A stretch of DNA of 64,000 nucleotides from an uncultured Collinsella sp. Its GTDB lineage: Bacteria > Actinomycetota > Coriobacteriia > Coriobacteriales > Coriobacteriaceae. The notes under the pieces are model-generated. The model saw nothing but the letters and a program-made list of their open reading frames with translations, did not search any database and was not told where the DNA came from. The stretch spans positions 34,498-98,497 of the forward strand of contig CAZRPL010000002.1 of assembly GCA_964602045.1 (NCBI GenBank). Reading direction: 5' to 3'. The position numbers and the translations under genes are program-made. Positions 20,112 to 32,038 of the stretch are shown one piece after another; the first letter of the stretch is position 1; the number at the start of each line of letters is the position of its first letter.

Positions 20112-21314
20112 TTATCGTCCCGATTGCCCCTGCTCATGCGAAAACAAGCCTTCATGCAGTTTTTTCCGGCGCGCGAGAAACCGTGCGGAGACATCTGCGG
20201 GGGAAACATTGGCAACCCGAGCATACGTCTGCAGAAAAGCATCGAATCGCTCAAGGTCGCTCAGGATTTCGTAATCGATATCCAAAACGGTATACCCCAT
20301 GTTAGCCAACGCCGCGCGCCGTCGCGAACTGTATCTGAACTCCTCGCGCCCGGCGTGAAACGCCTCGCCGTTGACTTCAATGATGAATTGGCCCTCCGTA
20401 TCTACCATGTCACCGATGCAATAGGGCTGACGTGCCAAGATAGCTGCATCTTGAGTGAACTTGATGACTCGATTGAGGTGCGGTGCGCGCAGGCCCTCTC
20501 CTCCCTCGGAGCGCGGGGCGAACAGCATGATCGACGCCTTGGTTTCGAGAGGCGACCCTGACCCACCGATAACGCAGCGCGCGAGATCGACCGCTCGACG
20601 CGTGCCTCGGGATCGTGGTGTGGCAGCTGCCTCCGCGCTGGCGATAAGACGATCGCATGTGGTTAACGGCGGTCTTTTCCAAAGGTCGGTCAAATTGCCC
20701 TGCACGTCGAAGGCGGGTTTCCAGCCAAGCGGTTCCCCTTCCTTATCGACATGGAAAATCTCACATCCAGAAGCATCACGGTAAGCGTTAATCCCGCGCA
20801 TCGTCTGTGCTGCCGTCTTCAAATCTTCAATCAGCGAAATCACCGCAGAAACTCGAGATGTCTTAGCGATGACACTGTAGATCCCACATGCCTCGAACAT
20901 CTTTTCCAGCACGATAGCCTCATCGGTGTAACGGATTAGATGTCTCAACGTGCTTTCGACAGACGTCACAGCAAGCCCGTTACCAAGATCGACAAGCTCG
21001 TCATCGCGCAAATCAATGCGAGTACGGCACGGGTGGACGAGTAGGCTTTTCCTCCCTGAATAACCGTCCTCCATAATTGCGTGGACAGGTAACGACACGC
21101 CCTTCAAATCCGTGAGCACGTGCGAGCGAACCGCCCTGTCAGCCGCGCGCTCGTTGCATCGAGACAGCAGCACGCGCCTCGGAACACCCAAGTTCTCCGA
21201 ATCTTCTGCGCATGCCAGCTCTGGCGGTAACTCGACATCGCGTATGGCTGGCGGGGTCGACCAGTACTGCCAAGCCGACCAATCGCACACGATGGCGTCG
21301 AATCTCTTTCGCAT
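20112..21314 (-). CDS. Protein with C-terminal DUF559/Vsr-like endonuclease-fold domain; N-terminal ~260 aa unassigned
   Basis: 400 aa. C-terminus GSPLETKASIML...GDMVDTEGQFIIEVNGEAFH...RRRAALANMGYTVLDI fits the DUF559 pattern. Visibly lower GC than neighbours, with an AT-rich upstream region. Confidence 0.8.
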   Translation of the reverse strand: MRKRFDAIVCDWSAWQYWSTPPAIRDVELPPELACAEDSENLGVPRRVLLSRCNERAADRAVRSHVLTDLKGVSLPVHAIMEDGYSGRKSLLVHPCRTRIDLRDDELVDLGNGLAVTSVESTLRHLIRYTDEAIVLEKMFEACGIYSVIAKTSRVSAVISLIEDLKTAAQTMRGINAYRDASGCEIFHVDKEGEPLGWKPAFDVQGNLTDLWKRPPLTTCDRLIASAEAAATPRSRGTRRAVDLARCVIGGSGSPLETKASIMLFAPRSEGGEGLRAPHLNRVIKFTQDAAILARQPYCIGDMVDTEGQFIIEVNGEAFHAGREEFRYSSRRRAALANMGYTVLDIDYEILSDLERFDAFLQTYARVANVSPADVSARFLARRKKLHEGLFSHEQGQSGR

Positions 21315-21724: not shown

Positions 21725-22966
21725 TTAGTAACCGAGGGCCTGCAGCGCGAACATCACGGCGGTGAGGACCGTGATGACCACGATGGTCGCCCAGGTCAAC
21801 GCGTTCCAAACGCGCCCGTTGCGGTACTCGCCCATGATGTGGCGGTCCTTGGCGATAAACAAGAGGAACACGAGGAGCACCGGAAGCAGCACACCGTTGA
21901 TGACCTGCGCGCTCATCATGATCTGGAACAAGTTGACGCCCGGCATGATGACCAGCAGCGCCGATGCCACGATAACGGCGGTGATGATGCCGCGGTAGAC
22001 CGGCGCCTCTTCCCAGCTGCGGTCGGCACCGCGCTCCCAACCGAACGCCTCGCAGATCGCGCTCGACGTCACGCCGGGCAACACGCAGGCGGCGAGGAAG
22101 CTCGCCGCAACCAGACCCGAGGCGAACAGGACCGTCGAGAACTTGCCGGCGATCGGCTCGAGCGCAAGCGCGGCATCGGCGGCGTCGGCCACCTGTACGC
22201 CCGCCGGGTAGAGCACCGCGCCGGTCGTCACGACGATAAACCACGCGACGGCGCATGCGATCACCGACCCCGATGCGGTATCGATGCGCTGCAACACGAT
22301 GCCGTCCTCGTCGACATTCTTGTCCACGACGTTGTTCTGCGCCAGGAATACCATCCACGGGGCGATGGTGGTGCCGATGGTCGCCACCAGCAGACTGACG
22401 TACTCCGGCTCGGCGACGATATGCGGCGACACCGTCGCCACGGCAACCTCGTCCCAATCGGGGCCGGCGAGAAACGCCGCCACCACGTAGGTCACGAAAA
22501 CGCAGCTCACCATGAGCAGGATCTTCTCGATGCGCTGAAAACTGCCGGACATGGTGAGCAGCCAGATCGTCAGACCGACGAGCGGCACCGAAACCGTCGC
22601 GGGCACGCCGAACAGGGCAAGTCCGCTGGCGATGCCGGCGAATTCCGAAATGGTCACCGCCGTGTTGGCGATAAGCAGCGCCATCATGGCAAGCGCGCTT
22701 TTGCGTATGCCGAAGCGCTCACGGATGAGCGAGGCGAACCCCTTGCCCGTCACGCAGCCGCAGCGGGCGGCCGTCTCCTGCACGACGACGAGCAGCAGCG
22801 CCATGAGCGGCAGCATCCACAGCGTGCCGTAGCCGTAGCTCGCACCGGCGCTCGAATAGGTGGCGATGCCGCCGGCATCGTTGCCCGATAGCGCCGCGAG
22901 CAGACCAGGCCCCATGGCTCCGAGGACCGCGCCCACGGTCAGTTTTTCGCGATGTTCCCTCCGCAT
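21725..22966 (-). CDS. NRAMP/SLC11-family transporter with NRMT-type (Mg2+) binding-site signature
   Basis: 413 aa, LeuT-fold-like. TM1 motif is NDAGGIATYSSAGASYGY where canonical MntH has DPGN. TM6 is IGTTIAPW where canonical has GATVMPH. Confidence 0.85.
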   Translation of the reverse strand: MRREHREKLTVGAVLGAMGPGLLAALSGNDAGGIATYSSAGASYGYGTLWMLPLMALLLVVVQETAARCGCVTGKGFASLIRERFGIRKSALAMMALLIANTAVTISEFAGIASGLALFGVPATVSVPLVGLTIWLLTMSGSFQRIEKILLMVSCVFVTYVVAAFLAGPDWDEVAVATVSPHIVAEPEYVSLLVATIGTTIAPWMVFLAQNNVVDKNVDEDGIVLQRIDTASGSVIACAVAWFIVVTTGAVLYPAGVQVADAADAALALEPIAGKFSTVLFASGLVAASFLAACVLPGVTSSAICEAFGWERGADRSWEEAPVYRGIITAVIVASALLVIMPGVNLFQIMMSAQVINGVLLPVLLVFLLFIAKDRHIMGEYRNGRVWNALTWATIVVITVLTAVMFALQALGY

Positions 22967-22981
22967 GATCTGCCCCGCAGC

Positions 22982-24886
22982 CTATACCGCGATCGCGACG
23001 AGGGCGAGCACCGCGAGCACCGAGTACAGCGCGCATGCGATCAGCACCGCCGATACCGAAAGCGCCGTACCCGAGGTGTTGAGGTCATGCTCGTCGCGCC
23101 AGAACAGCACCTTGAGGTAGATGACCGCCGTCGCGCAGGATGCAAGCGACACCGCGGCGGCGCAGGCGAAGCACGACGCGAGCGCTGCAGCGGACGTGGC
23201 AGCCATGGTGACCTCGCCGGCAACCATCGCGGGCGCGTCGAACAGACGGATGGTCGCCAGCAGATCATCGGGATAGGCGGCGCCGAGCACGAGCTGGCCG
23301 CACAGGTAGATCACGAGCGCCAGCGCGATGCCGATCACCGACATCTGCAGGAAGAAGCCGAGATACGGCTTATCCTGCTCGTCGTCCTCATCGTACTCGA
23401 GGTAGTAGTTGCGCACGAACGACACGACGCGGTTGGCGGCGAGCAGCACCACGGGCATGACGCACATGGGATACACGAACAGGCCGGTCGCAACGCCTGC
23501 CGCCTCGAGCGCGGCAGCGATGACGCCGGAGGCGATCGCCCAGATGAGCAACCAATACTGTCGACGCGCGAACCACGAGAACGCGTGGATCGATTCACCG
23601 GCGCTGCCCTCGCCGGAGCCGACGCCGGCGATCTGCAGGTCTTCCTGGTGCTCCTCGGTCATGACCTCCATGGCGTCGTCGACCGTGACGATGCCCAGGA
23701 TGTGACGGTTCTCGTCGCAGACCGGCATCGCCGCGAGGTTGTACTTGGACATCTCCTCGGCGACGTCCTCCTGGTCCTCGTCGGGAGCGACCCAGACCAC
23801 GTCGCGGTACGCAAGACTGTTCAGGCGCGCATCGCGATCGGCCACGATCAGCGTCCGCAGGGACAGCACGCCGGTCAGCGCGCCGGAGGGATCGGTGGTG
23901 TACACGTAGTAGACGCTCTCGAAGTCCTCGTCGAGACGACGTAGGCCCTCGATCGCATCGGAGACGGTGGCGGTCGCCGGCAGCGCGACGAACTCCGAGG
24001 TCATGATACGACCGGCGGTGTTTTCCTCGTATCCCAGCAGGGTGCGGATCGCGCGCTCCTCCTTGACGCCCATCAGGCGCAGGAGTTTCTCGGCTTTCTC
24101 GTAGTCGAGCTCGTCGATGAGCGCGGCGGCGTCATCGGGGTCCATGAGGGCGAGCATCGAGGACGCATCGCGGTCCGACAGGCCCTCGAGCATCTCGGCG
24201 ACGAGCCCGTCATCGTCGAACTCCGAGATGGCTTCGGCCGCCTGAGCGGTGTCGAGCTGGGCGAACACTTCGCCGCGCAGGCGCGGATCGAGCTGCTCGA
24301 TGATGTCGGCGATGTCGGCGGGATGCAGCTCGCCGAGCGTCTTGTGCGACACGGAGAGCTTGATGGTCTGCGTGGAGCGCTCGAGCAGGTCCATGTAGGA
24401 CCAGGCGATGATATCCTCGGGCAACGTCTTACCCATGGCGCGGGCGATCTTGACCACCGCGCGCTCGAGCACCGGGTGCAACGTACGCAGCAGTCCGCGC
24501 ATGCCCACCTCGGCGCCGAGCAGGCGCAGCTGGTTCTCGCCGGAAGCGGAGAGTTTGATATCGTTCACGCGGACGACCTTCATGCCCTGCGTGTCGACGA
24601 TCTGCTTGTTCATGATGTCGCGGGCGAGCAACACCTCGTCGGGCTGCAGGTACGAGAAGCGGATGTCGGTCGCGGGAACCTTCAGGAAAACCCCGTCGTC
24701 ATCGATGCGCTCGACGTACTTGCGCCACGAGATCATAAACGGCGTCTTGCCCGGCCCTTGGAAGGCCAAAGACGTCACATGGGGAAAGACCTCGCCGGTG
24801 GCGATGCCCAGGTCGTTGACGATGCCGATCTTCTCGCCGGTCGAATCGACGACGGGAAGCTTGAGCATCTCGGAAAGATAGTTCAT
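22982..24886 (-). CDS. PRC-barrel + MgtE_N + CBS-pair membrane protein with divergent/degenerate MgtE-like TM region
   Basis: 634 aa. N-terminus LKLPVVDSTGEKIGIVNDL (PRC-like). ELHPADIADIIEQLDP...MDPDDAAALIDELD (MgtE_N). Two CBS-like repeats. C-terminal ~190 aa hydrophobic, without the MGGNAG loop. Confidence 0.8.
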   Translation of the reverse strand: MNYLSEMLKLPVVDSTGEKIGIVNDLGIATGEVFPHVTSLAFQGPGKTPFMISWRKYVERIDDDGVFLKVPATDIRFSYLQPDEVLLARDIMNKQIVDTQGMKVVRVNDIKLSASGENQLRLLGAEVGMRGLLRTLHPVLERAVVKIARAMGKTLPEDIIAWSYMDLLERSTQTIKLSVSHKTLGELHPADIADIIEQLDPRLRGEVFAQLDTAQAAEAISEFDDDGLVAEMLEGLSDRDASSMLALMDPDDAAALIDELDYEKAEKLLRLMGVKEERAIRTLLGYEENTAGRIMTSEFVALPATATVSDAIEGLRRLDEDFESVYYVYTTDPSGALTGVLSLRTLIVADRDARLNSLAYRDVVWVAPDEDQEDVAEEMSKYNLAAMPVCDENRHILGIVTVDDAMEVMTEEHQEDLQIAGVGSGEGSAGESIHAFSWFARRQYWLLIWAIASGVIAAALEAAGVATGLFVYPMCVMPVVLLAANRVVSFVRNYYLEYDEDDEQDKPYLGFFLQMSVIGIALALVIYLCGQLVLGAAYPDDLLATIRLFDAPAMVAGEVTMAATSAAALASCFACAAAVSLASCATAVIYLKVLFWRDEHDLNTSGTALSVSAVLIACALYSVLAVLALVAIAV

Positions 24887-25046
24887 GGTGCTCCTTTGCG
24901 AAAGCTATGGCGACGCTACCCCAGCGTGCGCCGGCAAAAGGCACCCGCAGGGGTCAGCTACTGTGTGGTCGAGGTTTGGGTTTCACCTGTATCCTTCTCT
25001 CGTGACCCTGCAAAATAAGAGCCCGACATCCGTCGAGCCCTCATAT

Positions 25047-25055
25047 TCTATAGCA
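25047..25055 (-). promoter_or_regulatory. Extended -10-like element (TGCTATAGA) upstream of the MgtE-like/NRMT operon
   Basis: Minus-strand AAAATGCTATAGAATATG, ~160 nt upstream of the ATG at 24886. Confidence 0.3.
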
Positions 25056-25102: not shown

Positions 25103-25137
25103 GCGCGGGGGACGGGCATACAACCCGTCCCCCGCGC
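25103..25137 (-). terminator. Terminator hairpin downstream of deacetylase 1
   Basis: 14-bp stem GCGCGGGGGACGGG / CCCGTCCCCCGCGC, followed on the minus strand by TTTCGGTT. Confidence 0.55.
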
Positions 25138-25167: not shown

Positions 25168-26994
25168 CTAAGCCTCGGGCAGCACGGCGCTCTTCGGCAT
25201 CTTGACGGTACCGTTGATGACATCCTCGGGGAAACGTCCATCGAGCTCCATCAGTTCGGAGACCGTGACCAACTCGTATCCGGCATCCTGCAGCCCCTCG
25301 ATGATATCCGGCAGCGCCTCGATATCCTGGGAGCGGTCCCCGCCGCCGTCGTGCATGAGCGCGATGGCGCCGTTGAAGGCCTGCGACAGGACCGTGTCGG
25401 TGATGGCGTCGGCTCCCGGCAGCTCCCAGTCGAGCGTATCGATGTTCCACAGGACGTTGCAGCTGATCAAGTCGGCGGCGCGCGCCCACTCGACCGTCGT
25501 GAACGCGCCGTACGGTGCACGGATCATCTGCACGCGCTCACCCGACGCCTCCTCGATCGAGTCGAACGCCGTCGAGATCTCGGAGCGCAGCGTATCGCGA
25601 TCGCACTCGGGCAGGTTCGCGTGGCTGTTGGTGTGGCTCGCCATCTCGTGACCGTCCGCGACCACCGTGGCGCTCATCGAGTTCGCGTTCGTACCCAGAT
25701 TGAAGAACGTCGCCTTCACGCCGTACTCCTTGAGGATAGCCAGGATCTCGGAGGTGTAGGAACTGGGGCCATCGTCGAAGGTGAGGGCGATGTACTTCTT
25801 GCCGTCCTGGGGGTTGGGGTTGAGGTAGCTGACCACCATGTCGGTCGGCTCCTCCACGACCTCCTTGTCGACCGTCTCGCCTGACTGCTTGCCGGTCCAA
25901 ACGGTCTTCTTGCCGCTTTTGCCCCACTGCGAGACGAACTGGATGGCACCGGTACCCTCCGTCGTGAGCTCGGGAGCGAGTTCGACGGTCTTCTCGGTGT
26001 GTTCCTCGGTCGTGTCGCCGCCGTCCTTGACGCTGAACGTCGACCCTTCCTTGATCTCCAGCGAGGCGAAATCCTTGGACGCGACACCCTCCCCGTTGAC
26101 CTCGAGGGTGCACCGGTCGCCCCCGTCCTTGTCGAGTTCCTTGCCGCTCACCGACAGCAGCCTGCCGGGCTTGGCGCCGAAGTAGCCGTTGTCCTCGAGC
26201 AACGTCGCGGCATCGGTCCCGATATGGACACTGACCGGCTCCCCGTTGACCGTGATGTCGATGTTGCGCCAGAAGAACTGGTATCCGATGCCCAGTGCGA
26301 TCGCGCCGAGCACCACGAGCGCCACGACGGCGGCGATCAGGGGCGTGCGCGGATTGCCGGGCTGATGGCTTTTCGCCGTTGACGGCGTGCGCCGTGCCGG
26401 GGCAACGCCCGCGCGGTTCGCGGGAGCATGTCCGGTGGTGGGGCGCCTCGCCTGCGTGGAGACACGTTGCGTCTGCGCCGTGGTCTTGCGCGTCTGCGGA
26501 TGCGCCTGAGCCCGTGCCGTGGTTTTGCGAACCTGGGTCTGTGTCGTGGCCTTGCGGGGATGCGGATGCATCTGGGTGGACGCTTTTCTGGCTTTCGGAT
26601 GCGCCTGAGCTTGGGCCGTGGCCTTGCGGGGATGCGGATGCGCCTGCCCTTGCACCGTTACCTTGCGCGCCTGCTGGCGCGTCTGCTTTTGGGCCCGAGG
26701 CTGAGCGGGCGCTGACGATTGGGGCGTCACACGCGTCGCGGAGGTCGAGGTGGCAGCGGTGCGCGGACGGGCGGTCCCGCCGGAGTTTTCGGTGCTCTTC
26801 GCAGCGGAAGTGGCCTGAGGACGGACGGCGTCATCGGACCCCTTGGTCACCTTCGAAGCGGAGTGGTATTGCGGCGAGGTGATCGACGCCGCCGTGCGAG
26901 GCCGCGTGACACGGCTCCCCTGGGCCGATGCCGTCGGCTTCTTCGCTGAGGACTGACGAGGGGTTTTGTTCTCGTTTCCGTTCATCATCTTCAT
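25168..26994 (-). CDS. Membrane-anchored polysaccharide deacetylase (NodB domain) with long basic N-terminal tail
   Basis: 608 aa. TM helix PLIAAVVALVVLGAIALGIGY. YabE/G5-like middle region. NodB motif IALTFDDGPSSYT...ATFF...H. Confidence 0.88.
   Translation of the reverse strand: MKMMNGNENKTPRQSSAKKPTASAQGSRVTRPRTAASITSPQYHSASKVTKGSDDAVRPQATSAAKSTENSGGTARPRTAATSTSATRVTPQSSAPAQPRAQKQTRQQARKVTVQGQAHPHPRKATAQAQAHPKARKASTQMHPHPRKATTQTQVRKTTARAQAHPQTRKTTAQTQRVSTQARRPTTGHAPANRAGVAPARRTPSTAKSHQPGNPRTPLIAAVVALVVLGAIALGIGYQFFWRNIDITVNGEPVSVHIGTDAATLLEDNGYFGAKPGRLLSVSGKELDKDGGDRCTLEVNGEGVASKDFASLEIKEGSTFSVKDGGDTTEEHTEKTVELAPELTTEGTGAIQFVSQWGKSGKKTVWTGKQSGETVDKEVVEEPTDMVVSYLNPNPQDGKKYIALTFDDGPSSYTSEILAILKEYGVKATFFNLGTNANSMSATVVADGHEMASHTNSHANLPECDRDTLRSEISTAFDSIEEASGERVQMIRAPYGAFTTVEWARAADLISCNVLWNIDTLDWELPGADAITDTVLSQAFNGAIALMHDGGGDRSQDIEALPDIIEGLQDAGYELVTVSELMELDGRFPEDVINGTVKMPKSAVLPEA
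26449..26673 (-). repeat. In-frame tandem peptide repeats (AHPxxRKxTxQ-like) within deacetylase 1
   Basis: QAHPHPRKATAQAQAHPKARKASTQMHPHPRKATTQTQVRKTTARAQAHPQTRKTTAQTQ. Confidence 0.7.
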
Positions 26995-27149: not shown

Positions 27150-28610
27150 TTATTCGCCCTCCCCTTCATCATCAGCATTTAGTTGAGGCAGCACGGCATC
27201 CTCGGGCATATCGACCTTCGCGAGATCGACCGCATCGGCCATCTCCTCGTCGGTCGCGATGAGCTCGGAGAGGGTGACGAGCGTGTAGCCTTCATCCTGA
27301 AGTTGCTTGATGATCTGGGGCAGCGCTTCGATCAGCTGCTCGCCGGTCGTCTCGCTGTCGGTAAGCAGGATGATGTTGCCGTTTCCGACCGATCCCACCA
27401 CGTTGTCGACGACCTGGTCGGCACCGGGCAGCAAGTAGTCACCCGAATCGAGGTTCCACGTCACCACGGCGCCCACCAGATCCATGGCGTCCGCCCAGTT
27501 CCGCTCGGAGAACAACCCATATGGAGGCCGAAGGGCCGCGGTCGACACCCCGGCGGCACCCTCGACGGCATCGAAGCCCTCGGTCAGCTGTGAGCGTAGA
27601 TCATCTGCCGAAAGCTCGCTCATATCGGTGTCGTTCATACCGTTCGAAGCGACCTCGCAACCGGCCTTCACGATTGTGGAAGCAGCCGCTCGGTTGTCGA
27701 GCAGCCGATCGCCCTGCAAAAAGAAGGTCGCCTTGGCATCGTACTCTGCCAGGATGCCCAGGATCTCGTTCGTGTAGGAGCTTGGCCCCTCATCGAACGT
27801 CAGCGCCACGTAACTGCCCGAATCCGGCGAGATGGAACGCGCACGCACCACGCAGTCCTGAGCCTCCTGCACGATGCCACGATCCTCGGTCTTGCCCGAT
27901 ACCCTGCCAGTCCACACCTCGGAACGCCCAGGCACGCCCCATGTCTCGACGTAGGCCACGGCACCGCTGCCCTCGACCGTGAGCGACGGCTCGATGGCGG
28001 TCGCCTCGATATCGTGCTCCTCGTACTCATCGCGCCCGTCGCCGATCTCGACCTCCTCGCCGCCCGCGAGCTTCGTCGTGGCGAGGTCGTCGTTATCGAT
28101 CTGCCTGCCGTTCACCTTGACGGAGTATGCCTCACCTCCGCGCTTCTCGAGCACGCTGTCGTCGACGGCAAGCAGGTCGCCGGCACGGACGCTCAGCTCC
28201 TGGTCGGCGATGAGCGTCTCGATACTCGAGTTGATGCGCACCGAGGCGTCCGCCCCGTTGAGGGATATGGTCACGTTGCGATTGACGTACCACACGATGC
28301 TCGCCACGAACAGCAGCGCGGCGCACCCGATCGCGATGATCACGTACGGGCGGCGCGAATCGCGGCGGCGAGGGCCGCGCATGATGCGCTTTGCGCGGCC
28401 GAATCCCTGCGTATGCCGCAGGTAACGCTCGCCCGGTCGACGCGCGCGCTGCTGAGCGCGGGGCAGCTGCCCCGTCGAGGCGCGGCGTTTGTGCGGTTTG
28501 CGTCCTTTTGTGGAGTAGGAGGTGGTGTAGTTAGGCAATGGTTCTCCCCAGTCCAAATCGAATCTAGAAAAGACTGTACCACGCCGTGATGGAGACGGCG
28601 CCTGCCGCAC
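27150..28610 (-). CDS. Membrane-anchored polysaccharide deacetylase paralogue
   Basis: 486 aa from a GTG start (start uncertain). TM PYVIIAIGCAALLFVASIVWYV. VALTFDEGPSSYT NodB motif. Same architecture as 25168..26994. Confidence 0.85.
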   Translation of the reverse strand: MRQAPSPSRRGTVFSRFDLDWGEPLPNYTTSYSTKGRKPHKRRASTGQLPRAQQRARRPGERYLRHTQGFGRAKRIMRGPRRRDSRRPYVIIAIGCAALLFVASIVWYVNRNVTISLNGADASVRINSSIETLIADQELSVRAGDLLAVDDSVLEKRGGEAYSVKVNGRQIDNDDLATTKLAGGEEVEIGDGRDEYEEHDIEATAIEPSLTVEGSGAVAYVETWGVPGRSEVWTGRVSGKTEDRGIVQEAQDCVVRARSISPDSGSYVALTFDEGPSSYTNEILGILAEYDAKATFFLQGDRLLDNRAAASTIVKAGCEVASNGMNDTDMSELSADDLRSQLTEGFDAVEGAAGVSTAALRPPYGLFSERNWADAMDLVGAVVTWNLDSGDYLLPGADQVVDNVVGSVGNGNIILLTDSETTGEQLIEALPQIIKQLQDEGYTLVTLSELIATDEEMADAVDLAKVDMPEDAVLPQLNADDEGEGE

Positions 28611-28648: not shown

Positions 28649-29404
28649 CTACTTCCTCTTCTTCTTCGCAGGGCCTGCAGCCTTGCGATATTCGCTGGCG
28701 AACGCCGAGAACATGCCGCGCGTCTTGCCAAGTTGCCTGCCCAGTGCACGGCTCCCCTTGTCGAGGGCCTTCGACCCCTTCTCGTCGATCGTCGCCGCGC
28801 CTTTCTTGACCTTATCGCCGATCACCACGCTCGCCTCCGCCGCCTTGGCGGCAACGCCGCCAGTCAGCTGGAGATCGAGCGTCTCGTCGGCAACGATCAT
28901 GGCACCGTCGCGGTAACCGCGCAAATAGCCTGCCGGCACCTCGAAATTGCCGACGAGCGCCGAGGCGGCCTCCCCTTCGGTGAGCACGAAATGCTTGACC
29001 TTGCCGGTGCGGCTGTCGAACAGGACATCGGAGCAGTAGCCCACGCGCGCACCGGAAGTCGTCATCGCATCCATACCCGTCCAGATCAGACAGGCATCCA
29101 GATCGACGCCGAGCCGCTTGGCGGCAGCGTCATCGAAATTGCGCTTTTCGTCGGTAACCGCAAGGACGCCCTCGTACACATCGAGGGCGTCGAGCGCCAC
29201 GAACCGATCGGGCTGCTTGATCATGCCGACCACGTCGGGCAGCTTGACCATGAAGCCGACGACATGCAGGCCATCGGGGGCGAACACCGGAAAGTGGATC
29301 TTTCCGAGGCGCTTGGGGTCGCGCGGCGTGCCGTCCTTGTTCGTCCGCCGGTCTTCGGCGGGCGCGCGGTAGACCCGCACGCCCTGGATATCGGAAACGA
29401 GCAT
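28649..29404 (-). CDS. PRC-barrel domain protein with basic C-terminal tail
   Basis: 251 aa. Two PRC-like halves (VSDIQGVRVY..., WTGMDAMTTSGARVGYCSDVLFD). Its ATG directly abuts the TAG of the upstream gene. Confidence 0.75.
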   Translation of the reverse strand: MLVSDIQGVRVYRAPAEDRRTNKDGTPRDPKRLGKIHFPVFAPDGLHVVGFMVKLPDVVGMIKQPDRFVALDALDVYEGVLAVTDEKRNFDDAAAKRLGVDLDACLIWTGMDAMTTSGARVGYCSDVLFDSRTGKVKHFVLTEGEAASALVGNFEVPAGYLRGYRDGAMIVADETLDLQLTGGVAAKAAEASVVIGDKVKKGAATIDEKGSKALDKGSRALGRQLGKTRGMFSAFASEYRKAAGPAKKKRK

Positions 29405-29800
29405 CTACGCCTCGGCGACCGGCTCAGCGGGATCGGCGGGCGCGGCATCGTCGGCCACGGACTCGACGACCACATCGGCGGCGGGGGTCACGTTGCCGCC
29501 GGCGATGGCGTCGTTCAGCTGCTCGCGCAGCTGGTCCATGCGCTCGCGGGCGAGATCGACCTTGGCGCGCAGCTCGTCGGTCTTGGCATCGACCATCGGG
29601 CCGAAGTCGGTCGCAGCGGCACGTGCCTGATCGACACCCTGCTCGTACATGTCGCGGGCGTTGTCCCAAGCATCATTGGCCATATCGGCGGCCATCGCAC
29701 GGGTCTCGGCACCGGAACGGGGAGCCATGAGGATGCCCGCGATGGTACCGGCTGCGGCGCCGATCACGGCACCTGCGACGAAACTGAATCCCTTACCCAT
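29405..29800 (-). CDS. YtxH domain protein
   Basis: MGKGFSFVAGAVIGAAAGTIAGILMAPRSGAETR start. GGAGGAG SD before the ATG at 29800. Confidence 0.8.
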   Translation of the reverse strand: MGKGFSFVAGAVIGAAAGTIAGILMAPRSGAETRAMAADMANDAWDNARDMYEQGVDQARAAATDFGPMVDAKTDELRAKVDLARERMDQLREQLNDAIAGGNVTPAADVVVESVADDAAPADPAEPVAEA

Positions 29801-29920
29801 GTTGCTCCTCCCATTCAGAGCCGATAGTTCAGTGGAAACCCCATTATACCCGCGCGCGCCCCTCGGCGACACACGGGTCCTTGCGCGGCTGCACGCAAGC
29901 GCGACTTCGGACGATGCGCC

Positions 29921-30691: not shown

Positions 30692-32038
30692 TTAGGCGTC
30701 CTTGCCCTCGCCCTTATCGGCACCGTCCTCGTGCTCCCGGACGACCTGATCGGGGTCGGGCCCGGTGACGCGGATCAGCGAGATGCGCTGACCGCGCATG
30801 GACTGCACCTTGAACTTGTACCCGTCCTGCTCGAACACCTCTCCGATATCGGGCACCGAGCCGCACAGATCCAAGATCCAGCCGGCCACGGTCTCGTAAT
30901 CGTCGCTCTCCTCGATCGGCCATCCGAGCTCGATGGCATCATCACATGAGAAGCGGCCATCGACCAGCCACTCGCGACGCGAGAGGCGCGTGAGGTACTT
31001 GTTGTCGGGATCGAACTCGTCCTCGATCTCGCCCACGAACTCCTCGACGATATCCTCGATGGTGATGATACCAGCCGTACCACCGTACTCGTCCACCACG
31101 ACGACCATCTGCTCATGAGCGGTCTGCATCTCGGAGAGCAGCGGCAGGATGTCCTTGGTGTCGGGCACGAACGTGGCGTCACGCACGAAGGAGGCTACCA
31201 TCGCGTCGCCGTGCCCCGCGAGCACCGGCTCGATCAGGTCCTTGATGTGGGCTATGCCCACGATGCAATCCTGGTCCTCGCGGAAGATCGGCACGCGCGA
31301 GAAGCCGGTGTCGCGCATGATGGCGAGCACCGAGGTGATCTCGTCACTGTCCTCACACATCGTCACGTCGACGCGCGGCACCATGACCTCGCGGGCAACG
31401 GCGTCGCCCAAGTCGAACACCTCGTGGATGATGCGCTTCTCCTCGTCGAGCAGGGTATCCTGCTCGCTGATCATGTACTTGATCTCCTCTTCGGACACGT
31501 TCTGGCGGTCGTCGGCGCTCTTGATGCCGAGCAGCTTGGACAGACCGTTCGCGGAGGCCTGCGTGAGCCACACGAGCGGCTTGGCGATCTTGCGGAAGGC
31601 GCTGATGGGACCGGCGACGGATTTGGCCATGCCCTCGGCGTCGGACAGGCCGATACGCTTGGGAACGAGCTCGCCGATGACGATGGACAGATAGGACACG
31701 ATCAGCGTGATGATGATCGGCGAGACGACGGGTGCCACCGCGCTGAGCGGTTCGATGTCGAACGACTCGAGCCAGCTGGACAGCGGATCGGACAGCGTGT
31801 TGGACGAGACGGTCGCGGAGAAGAAGCCGACGAGCGTGATGGCGACCTGGATGGTAGCCAAAAAGTCGGTCGAGTCGGTCGATAACTCGAGCGCCTTGGC
31901 GGCGCGGCGGTCGCCCTCCTCGGCGTCATGCTCGAGGCTGGCGCGCTTAGCCGTGGTGAGAGCCATCTCCGACATGGAGAAGTAGCCGTTCAGGATGGTG
32001 AGCAGCAGGGTGGCAATGATGGAAATCGCTATGCCCAT
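30692..32038 (-). CDS. CNNM/CorC-type hemolysin-family protein (DUF21 + CBS pair + CorC_HlyC)
   Basis: 448 aa. NGYFSMSEMAL DUF21 start, CBS pair, C-terminal CorC_HlyC-like domain. Confidence 0.9.
   Translation of the reverse strand: MGIAISIIATLLLTILNGYFSMSEMALTTAKRASLEHDAEEGDRRAAKALELSTDSTDFLATIQVAITLVGFFSATVSSNTLSDPLSSWLESFDIEPLSAVAPVVSPIIITLIVSYLSIVIGELVPKRIGLSDAEGMAKSVAGPISAFRKIAKPLVWLTQASANGLSKLLGIKSADDRQNVSEEEIKYMISEQDTLLDEEKRIIHEVFDLGDAVAREVMVPRVDVTMCEDSDEITSVLAIMRDTGFSRVPIFREDQDCIVGIAHIKDLIEPVLAGHGDAMVASFVRDATFVPDTKDILPLLSEMQTAHEQMVVVVDEYGGTAGIITIEDIVEEFVGEIEDEFDPDNKYLTRLSRREWLVDGRFSCDDAIELGWPIEESDDYETVAGWILDLCGSVPDIGEVFEQDGYKFKVQSMRGQRISLIRVTGPDPDQVVREHEDGADKGEGKDA

Follow-up and report, generated by a model that had tools for sequence, protein, structure and literature searches.

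The window analysed here, a stretch of 64,000 nucleotides from an uncultured Collinsella sp. (contig CAZRPL010000002.1), carries two adjacent minus-strand genes that we read as a Mg2+ uptake operon. Its closest protein match, at 97% identity, comes from C. tanakaei, in keeping with a Collinsella-like origin. The upstream gene (22982..24886, -), identified from the open reading frame (ORF) call and Pfam, encodes a 634-amino-acid (aa) MgtE-derived protein, hereafter the partner. The gene that follows it (21725..22966, -) encodes a 413-aa SLC11/NRAMP protein of the NRAMP-related Mg2+ transporter (NRMT) clade. With modest confidence, we favour a model that makes the NRMT the carrier and the partner a membrane Mg2+ sensor of MgtE descent, no longer a channel, that restrains the NRMT. 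We favour a sensor because the partner keeps the parts of MgtE that sense Mg2+ and relay this to the membrane domain and has lost the parts that conduct ions, and a brake because a Mg2+ carrier that is not coupled to H+ needs one.

A first reading of the DNA letters, here called the sequence-only reading, had placed both ORFs within 21725-24886 and given the upstream protein 634 aa, and both are there as it described them. It had also divided the 634-aa protein into a PRC barrel, an MgtE_N domain, a CBS pair and a transmembrane (TM) part, and this division was recovered here, a Pfam scan finding PRC, MgtE_N and two CBS domains ahead of five TM helices. Its account of the junction needs correction. 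From the stop codon of the partner to the start of the NRMT, the spacer (22967..22981, -; TAG-gctgcggggcagatc-ATG) measures 15 nucleotides (nt), not 16 bp, and the claim that the genes are translationally linked is not established, given the 15-nt gap and the presence of a weak but not a strong Shine-Dalgarno (SD) sequence ahead of the NRMT. The two ORFs lie in one reading frame, and read-through of the stop codon would provide a linker of only 6 residues, across the membrane. In relatives, the two genes mostly lie close together, anywhere from overlapping by 4 nt to standing about 58 nt apart; at one locus the distance is 313 nt.

The transporter scores 495 bits against the Eggerthella lenta NRMT (EleNRMT; PDB 7qia), with about 55% identity and no gaps over residues 9-412, and Pfam PF01566 (Nramp) covers it over profile positions 1-356 of 357 (2.4e-84). 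The NRMT-type Mg2+ signature proposed in the sequence-only reading, NDAGG and GTTIAPW, is present and aligns gaplessly with EleNRMT D55/G58 and T224/A227/W229. At the alpha-1 site (N29-D30-A31-G32-G33), D30 keeps the Asp (EleNRMT D55) and G33 stands for Asn (G58); at the alpha-6 site, T199 stands for Ala (T224), A202 for Met (A227), and W204 corresponds to W229. Further signature residues are E108 (E133) and Q354 (Q379). Both His positions of the alpha-6b proton pathway are replaced by non-protonatable residues in each protein, the first by Trp in both (W204 in the window), the second by Ala in the window protein (A209) and Asn in EleNRMT. EleNRMT transports Mg2+ and Mn2+ and not Ca2+, without H+ coupling (Ramanadane et al. 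2022, PMC8806188), and the same study assigned roles to the clade-defining residues, T224 being needed for Mg2+ (PMC8806188). The two proteins belong to the same clade and share the binding-site residues D, G, T, A and Q (PDB 7qia/7qic). They come from different genera, and transport was measured for EleNRMT, whereas the window NRMT is known from its sequence. Judged by these alignments, the window NRAMP is an NRMT orthologue, a fresh member of a known family. From its orthology to EleNRMT, together with the M-box control of orthologous operons described below, it is predicted to be an H+-uncoupled uptake carrier for Mg2+ (and Mn2+). A variant of the signature was seen in one Nramp on a Chloroflexota-type contig beside a soluble partner (L088, 5263-6549), which has GTTITPWG, with Thr instead of Ala at the Met position.

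The cytosolic part of the partner begins with a PRC barrel (aa 2-72; Pfam PRC, 1.6e-8) and a highly conserved beta-rich segment (aa ~81-185), which together span 24332..24883 (-). At a lax threshold the segment gives a second weak PRC stretch and is possibly a second PRC-like half; canonical MgtE has nothing that corresponds to the barrel and the next ~100 residues. In general, PRC barrels serve as modules for interaction with protein or RNA. There follow an MgtE_N domain (aa 187-289; 24020..24328, -), matched by PF03448 over its full length (1-102 of 102; 2.1e-24), and a CBS pair (aa ~295-410; two PF00571 matches, 1e-19) that runs into an acidic plug or connecting helix ending at aa ~421 (23657..24004, -). 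The partner aligns with residues 21-305 of the Thermus thermophilus MgtE (TtMgtE), reaching TM1, and the CBS region aligns without gaps. Judging the cytosolic Mg2+-sensing sites by the conservation of acidic positions only, we found the acidic cluster kept, D403, D404, E407, E412, E415 and D416 corresponding to TtMgtE D246, D247, D250, E255, E258 and D259. The AlphaFold2 (AF2) model of the full-length protein, with a predicted local distance difference test (pLDDT) score of 79, had full-length MgtE (2zy9/2yvx) as its top Foldseek matches (E=8e-21, 460 columns).

The C-terminal domain (aa ~436-634; 22985..23581, -) was delimited by hydropathy, AF2 and profile comparison and is classed as descended from the MgtE TM domain but pore-dead. 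Hydropathy and AF2 alike place five TM helices after residue ~436, and pLDDT is ~90 over the domain. These helices had been reported to align only loosely with MgtE, and they do: the Pfam scan gave no match to PF01769 (MgtE TM) in the 634-aa protein, and the NCBIfam mgtE model TIGR00400 reached 208.4 bits against a cut-off of 232.75, with only profile positions 19-297 of 450 matched. Homology of the TM part to MgtE was recovered only via intermediates and a family-wide profile. Compared by hhalign, the Collinsella TM region matched the relatives that are negative in Pfam (probability 98.4%, E=5e-15, 167 columns) and those that are positive (96.5%, E=8e-10, 171 columns), and the Pfam-positive relatives in turn matched those with canonical motifs (98.8%, E=5e-17, 170 columns); the direct comparison of the Collinsella TM region with the two canonical-motif relatives was not significant (probability 0.2%, 41 columns). 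A TM-only family profile of 29 sequences, with the window sequence first, matched the MgtE TM crystal chains 4u9n/4u9l/8h5e at E=1.3e-13 (profile 8-173, chain 11-176). Because this profile matches the MgtE TM structures end to end, we take the region to be a genuine, highly diverged MgtE membrane domain; that it might be unrelated to MgtE was rejected on the same match.

The residues that make the MgtE pore are gone from this domain. Asp432 is the sole conserved acidic residue of the MgtE pore and its selectivity filter (PMC4241985); by transitive profile alignment, its position is taken by the Val of SAVLI, and the last helix (TM5) contains no acidic residue. The TM2 motif GGNxGxQ reads LLAANRV, and Pro321 is kept as P478. 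The sequence-only reading, which had noted the missing MGGNAG loop and SAVLI at the pore Asp, was therefore right on both counts. It had also named a TM region scoring as a normal MgtE pore domain as the result that would speak against it; what was found is a region that misses PF01769 and the TIGR00400 cut-off and has lost the pore residues. Other conserved features of the TM region are W445, W449, P478, an acidic cytosolic loop between TM2 and TM3 (LEYDExDDE) and a WRDEHDLNTSG loop. Set beside the MgtE channel (T. thermophilus, 2yvx/2zy9/4u9l; TIGR00400; PF01769), the partner shares the N domain, the CBS pair, the acidic connecting helix, the five-helix topology and Pro321. It differs by the added N-terminal PRC barrel and ~100 aa, the exchange of Asp432 for Val, the loss of GGNxGxQ, the missed family models and changes in three of the five ATP-contact side chains. 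The membrane domain of the partner is thus, on the profile evidence, MgtE-derived with its pore residues lost.

Loss of the pore has not been followed by decay. The ratio of nonsynonymous to synonymous substitution rates (dN/dS), taken from 300 pairs of Collinsella genes whose dS lay at 0.15-1.2, was 0.039 in the TM region and 0.021 in the cytosolic part. By part, it was 0.07 in the PRC barrel, 0.017 in the beta-rich segment and about 0 in MgtE_N (within Collinsella). On the value of 0.039 for the TM region, a relic in decay was rejected, and such strong purifying selection argues for a functional domain, as expected for an interaction surface or a dimerisation scaffold.

Relatives of the partner were collected by an exhaustive search of 1.84 billion representatives. 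They fall into two architectures, both with the PRC barrel from residue 1: long forms of 570-656 aa with 4-5 TM helices (~31 clusters) and a larger group of short soluble forms of 405-450 aa (~90 clusters). PF01769 matches 18 of 37 long forms (best E=1e-29), and the long-form C-termini make a graded series from canonical motifs to the Collinsella type. At one end, P0178 (from a Nitrospirota metagenome-assembled genome) and P0266 keep the canonical TM2 motif, AGNAGLQ/SGNTGLQ, and the Asp of the TM5 FxD, and P0178 passes the mgtE cut-off with 349 bits. With the same PRC, MgtE_N, CBS and 5-TM architecture and a similar length, these two are the closest intact-pore relatives of the family; they differ from the window protein in keeping the TM2 motif and the TM5 Asp and in having no adjacent Nramp gene. 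In most Coriobacteriia relatives, TM2 reads LRTAEDxSSR or LSDDxST and TM5 is without an Asp, and the Collinsella clade has MPVVLLAANR in TM2 and SAVLI in TM5. The membrane-anchored, pore-dead form is the rule in Coriobacteriia. In one further relative (P0135, 1314 aa, a Logan metagenome protein found on 2 contigs), PRC, MgtE_N and CBS are fused N-terminally to an MgtA-type Mg2+ P-type ATPase (TIGR01524, 1120 bits). Because P0135 carries the same module on an MgtA-type pump, the family suggests that PRC-MgtE_N-CBS may be a portable Mg2+ sensor used with three transporter types. Three long-form relatives of ~750 aa (P0137, P0150 and P0172) have an extra C-terminal tail with an extremely high content of Asp, Glu and Trp, such as DWDDWGEGDWDDWGDEHWGEGDWDEGYWDD.

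The pairing of partner and NRMT is near-obligate. A genome-contig search with the NRMT, which returned only Collinsella species, gave 78 species loci having upstream DNA, and in all 78 the NRMT is immediately preceded by the long form. Among metagenome loci with sufficient sequence, the same holds for 68 of 68. The pairing extends to seven further Coriobacteriia-type lineages (loci L081-L086, L091, L092 and L094), in which the partners are 30-58% identical and every Nramp has the NRMT signature. Soluble short forms are likewise paired, in L088 (Chloroflexota-type) and in L095 (Bacillota). The sequence-only reading had asked for phylogenomic co-occurrence and had held that a pairing confined to this genome would speak against the proposal; the pairing is conserved well beyond it. 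No Nramp gene adjoins either of the two intact-pore relatives examined, P0178 and P0266, the downstream genes being an MtnA-like gene and a kdp cluster. Small as this sample is, the two would fit a loss of the pore that goes together with coupling to the NRMT.

A link to Mg2+ comes from the leaders of related operons. In four basal lineages of environmental Coriobacteriia/Anaerosomatales with a long-form partner (L081, 4487-4691; L083, 4600-4795; L085, 4574-4778; L091, 2575-2745), the partner-NRMT operon stands behind an M-box, a Mg2+ riboswitch (RF00380, 122-149 bits), and another M-box precedes the intact-pore P0266 (L090, 2457-2624). An Rfam scan of the window found no M-box, even at E<=1, and by this distribution the gut lineages have lost it. 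In the place that the M-box has in basal relatives, the window operon carries a conserved leader element (24911..25008, -), recognised by its conservation. It is kept in 78 of 79 leaders from Collinsella; other gut Coriobacteriales, with partners only 50-57% identical, have a shorter variant. The element was found at the equivalent position in L001-L079, L094, L098, L112-L114, L150, L164 and L185. It occurs once in the window, where none is expected by chance, and a pattern scan of metagenomes returned 120 matches, 99 of which have a partner gene 75-163 nt downstream.

Downstream of a conserved -10 element, the leader carries GGGUCA; the purine block GAGAAAGG; GGUGAAAnCnAAACCyCGACC-nnACA-GUCG-n-UGACCCC; GGUG; a variable hairpin; GGGGU; and the SD sequence. 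Its nested inverted repeats (GGGUCA/UGACCC and CGAC/GUCG) hint at a riboregulator, as do conceivable alternative pairings, of ACCCC with GGGGU and of an AAGG decoy with CCUU and the SD sequence. Rfam gave no match for it, and its being a diverged M-box was rejected for want of any resemblance to the RF00380 consensus. RNAalifold returned two short hairpins with one covarying pair and weak support, and because covariation is minimal we claim no RNA structure. The element may be a cis-regulatory RNA (a riboregulator) or a DNA operator. The leader is bounded upstream by a strong intrinsic terminator (25103..25137, -; terminator scan) that closes the preceding polysaccharide-deacetylase gene, leaving ~215 nt ahead of the partner ORF. 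Just downstream of that terminator lies a putative extended -10 element of the operon (TGcTATAGA, 25047..25055, -), conserved across Collinsella leaders as GATGCTATAGT (TGnTATAGT); it is proposed from this conservation and was missed by a consensus promoter scan.

Several neighbouring genes keep company with the operon. A CNNM/CBS/CorC_HlyC gene of the CorB/CorC Mg2+-transporter type, correctly called in the sequence-only reading, lies at 30692..32038 (-) with Pfam matches to CNNM (1.8e-42), CBS and CorC_HlyC; we treat it as neighbourhood context and not as a demonstrated member of the partner-NRMT system. A separate PRC-barrel protein (~230-250 aa) adjoins a YtxH-like protein (28649..29404, -, and 29405..29872, -), and this pair stays near the partner-NRMT operon in distant Coriobacteriia (L083, L085 and L094). 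Two paralogous polysaccharide deacetylases (25168..26994, -, and 27150..28610, -) stand between the PRC/YtxH genes and the operon, each with a long low-complexity N-terminal region rich in basic residues, Thr, Gln and Ala and a TM segment; in relatives, the deacetylase is present as a single copy or placed elsewhere. L094, whose partner is 52% identical, shares the order of the window: CNNM, a Cyanophycin_syn-like gene, a small protein, the PRC protein, partner, Nramp and LemA. That L094 might be an Eggerthella lenta locus was rejected, as it belongs to another lineage, with an NRMT that shares 56% identity with EleNRMT. Just downstream of the NRMT gene, a 400-aa ORF (20112..21314, -) has only a weak match to DUF559 (endonuclease-like), and G+C content is 0.554 at 20-22 kb against ~0.63 around it; the ORF region may be a small inserted element.

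The pairing as such is not new. Shin et al. (2014) reported that most NrmT genes adjoin a gene with homology to MgtE's N-terminal cytoplasmic domain, often co-transcribed with it behind an M-box, and speculated on cytoplasmic feedback regulation or a metal chaperone (PMC4072509). The sequence-only reading, which had called a sensor-only MgtE relative coupled to an NRMT undescribed, was accordingly mistaken about the coupling; what stands is that the PRC barrel and the membrane-anchored, pore-dead form of the partner are apparently undescribed. Those published relatives (A. capsulatum ACP_2976; a split pair in the C. acetobutylicum Ca_c0685 operon) resemble the window protein in their MgtE N and CBS homology and in their place directly upstream of nrmT. 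They often lie behind an M-box, whereas the window operon has none; they are described as small and soluble, whereas the window protein has 634 aa and a pore-less 5-TM domain; and the N-terminal PRC barrel, present in long and short forms, is unmentioned in PMC4072509. Neither that paper nor PMC8806188 contains the PRC barrel, the membrane-anchored pore-dead form or the graded channel-to-sensor series, and literature searches added nothing. The EleNRMT study makes no mention of a partner protein (PMC8806188).

According to the model that we favour, the NRMT would be the transporter proper and would carry partly hydrated Mg2+ (and Mn2+) inward without H+ coupling, as its E. lenta orthologue does. 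The partner would retain the sensing module of MgtE, namely the acidic N domain, the CBS pair and the acidic connecting helix, to which the PRC barrel is added, with the five-helix membrane domain kept as a pore-less scaffold. It would thus be a membrane-anchored, probably dimeric Mg2+ sensor that contacts the NRMT in or at the membrane. At high cytosolic Mg2+ it would throttle the NRMT, providing post-translational feedback on a carrier for which the membrane potential would otherwise be the sole drive. Mg2+ binding by the partner, its dimerisation, its contact with the NRMT and the direction of regulation are all inferred.

Five observations weigh against this model. In the single published test, co-expressing the soluble partner of A. 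capsulatum left rescue by its NrmT unchanged, and this NrmT behaved as a Mn2+ transporter (PMC4072509). The C. acetobutylicum NrmTs (PMC4072509) and purified EleNRMT (PMC8806188) function without a partner, so transport does not require it. Among the MgtE residues that contact ATP, Y170, R187, D188, N203 and F227 (PMC5529423), the partner keeps Y170 and R187 (Y327, R344), whereas D188, N203 and F227 are replaced (T345, Y360, L384); with three of five side chains changed, ATP tuning of the MgtE kind is not to be assumed. Unpaired relatives exist, the long-form P0149 and the short-form P0475. Finally, a Foldseek search with the TM-only AF2 model (pLDDT 89), a monomer of a domain that is probably dimeric, placed MgtE TM structures at ranks 2-4, with a non-significant E of ~0.6 and TM-scores of 0.40-0.48.

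A bolder version, which we put forward tentatively and think doubtful as it stands, makes the pore-dead partner an obligate regulatory subunit, a "pseudo-channel", in a heteromeric membrane complex that gates the NRMT by cytosolic Mg2+. The known forms would then be stages on the way from channel to portable sensor, with the intact-pore PRC-MgtE unpaired and the pore-dead membrane form and the soluble form both paired, and in gut Coriobacteriales the leader element, not described before, would have taken the place of the M-box as the genetic side of this control.

Among the alternatives, the one that survives best, unlikely as we consider it, is that the partner serves the assembly or stability of the NRMT or acts as its metal chaperone, and not as a gate dependent on Mg2+; it might deliver or remove ions at the cytosolic exit or assist membrane insertion. 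The tight pairing of the genes would suit such a role, with a spacing that suggests balanced co-expression, as would the general use of PRC barrels as interaction modules. A chaperone was the alternative raised by Shin et al. (PMC4072509). The NRMTs tested so far were functional without a partner in heterologous hosts and liposomes, however, and the most conserved parts of the partner are the MgtE sensor domains and the acidic helix.

That the partner still conducts ions, as an MgtE-type channel of altered selectivity or pore chemistry working in parallel to the NRMT, is less probable again. Such a channel would account for a 5-TM domain that is kept across a whole bacterial class under strong purifying selection and is modelled with confidence. 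It could also draw on P0168, which passes the NCBIfam mgtE cut-off with 268.6 bits despite missing the pore Asp, and on the many relatives outside Collinsella with an acidic AED or SDD at the GGN position of TM2. Against this, the Collinsella clade lacks even the AED, on top of the Val at Asp432, the lost Gly/Asn motif of TM2 and a TM5 free of acidic residues. Furthermore, the module needs no membrane domain to work, as the soluble short forms show, and both intact-pore relatives examined are the ones unpaired with an Nramp.

We also find it improbable that, in this lineage, Mn2+ or another transition metal is what the system mainly handles, with a partner that senses that metal. EleNRMT does carry Mn2+ as well (PMC8806188), the A. 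capsulatum NrmT beside its MgtE-like gene rescued Mn2+ and, poorly, Mg2+ (PMC4072509), and the window operon has no M-box. The binding-site signature is nevertheless identical to that of EleNRMT, down to the Thr needed for Mg2+ (T224), and orthologous operons in four basal lineages are under M-box control. Least probable of all is that the genes are merely co-transcribed and the partner is a free-standing membrane sensor of Mg2+ or nucleotide with another target, as the unpaired long and short forms and the fusion of the module to a different transporter might hint, since the pairing holds in 146 of 146 loci with enough sequence and persists down to ~30% identity, and the Pfam scan found no output domain besides the PRC barrel.

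The MgtE-like gene beside nrmT has been on record since 2014, and the EleNRMT structures were made without a partner. The conserved pore-less membrane domain argues that the partner acts at the membrane, beside the transporter, and the restraint that we propose offers a model for how an uncoupled Mg2+ carrier would be kept from overloading the cell. The system is found in essentially every sampled locus of Collinsella, an abundant genus of the human gut. If true, the series that leads from an intact channel through a pore-dead anchor to a soluble sensor, with the fusion to an MgtA-type pump beside it, would clearly exemplify the reuse of a channel domain for regulation.

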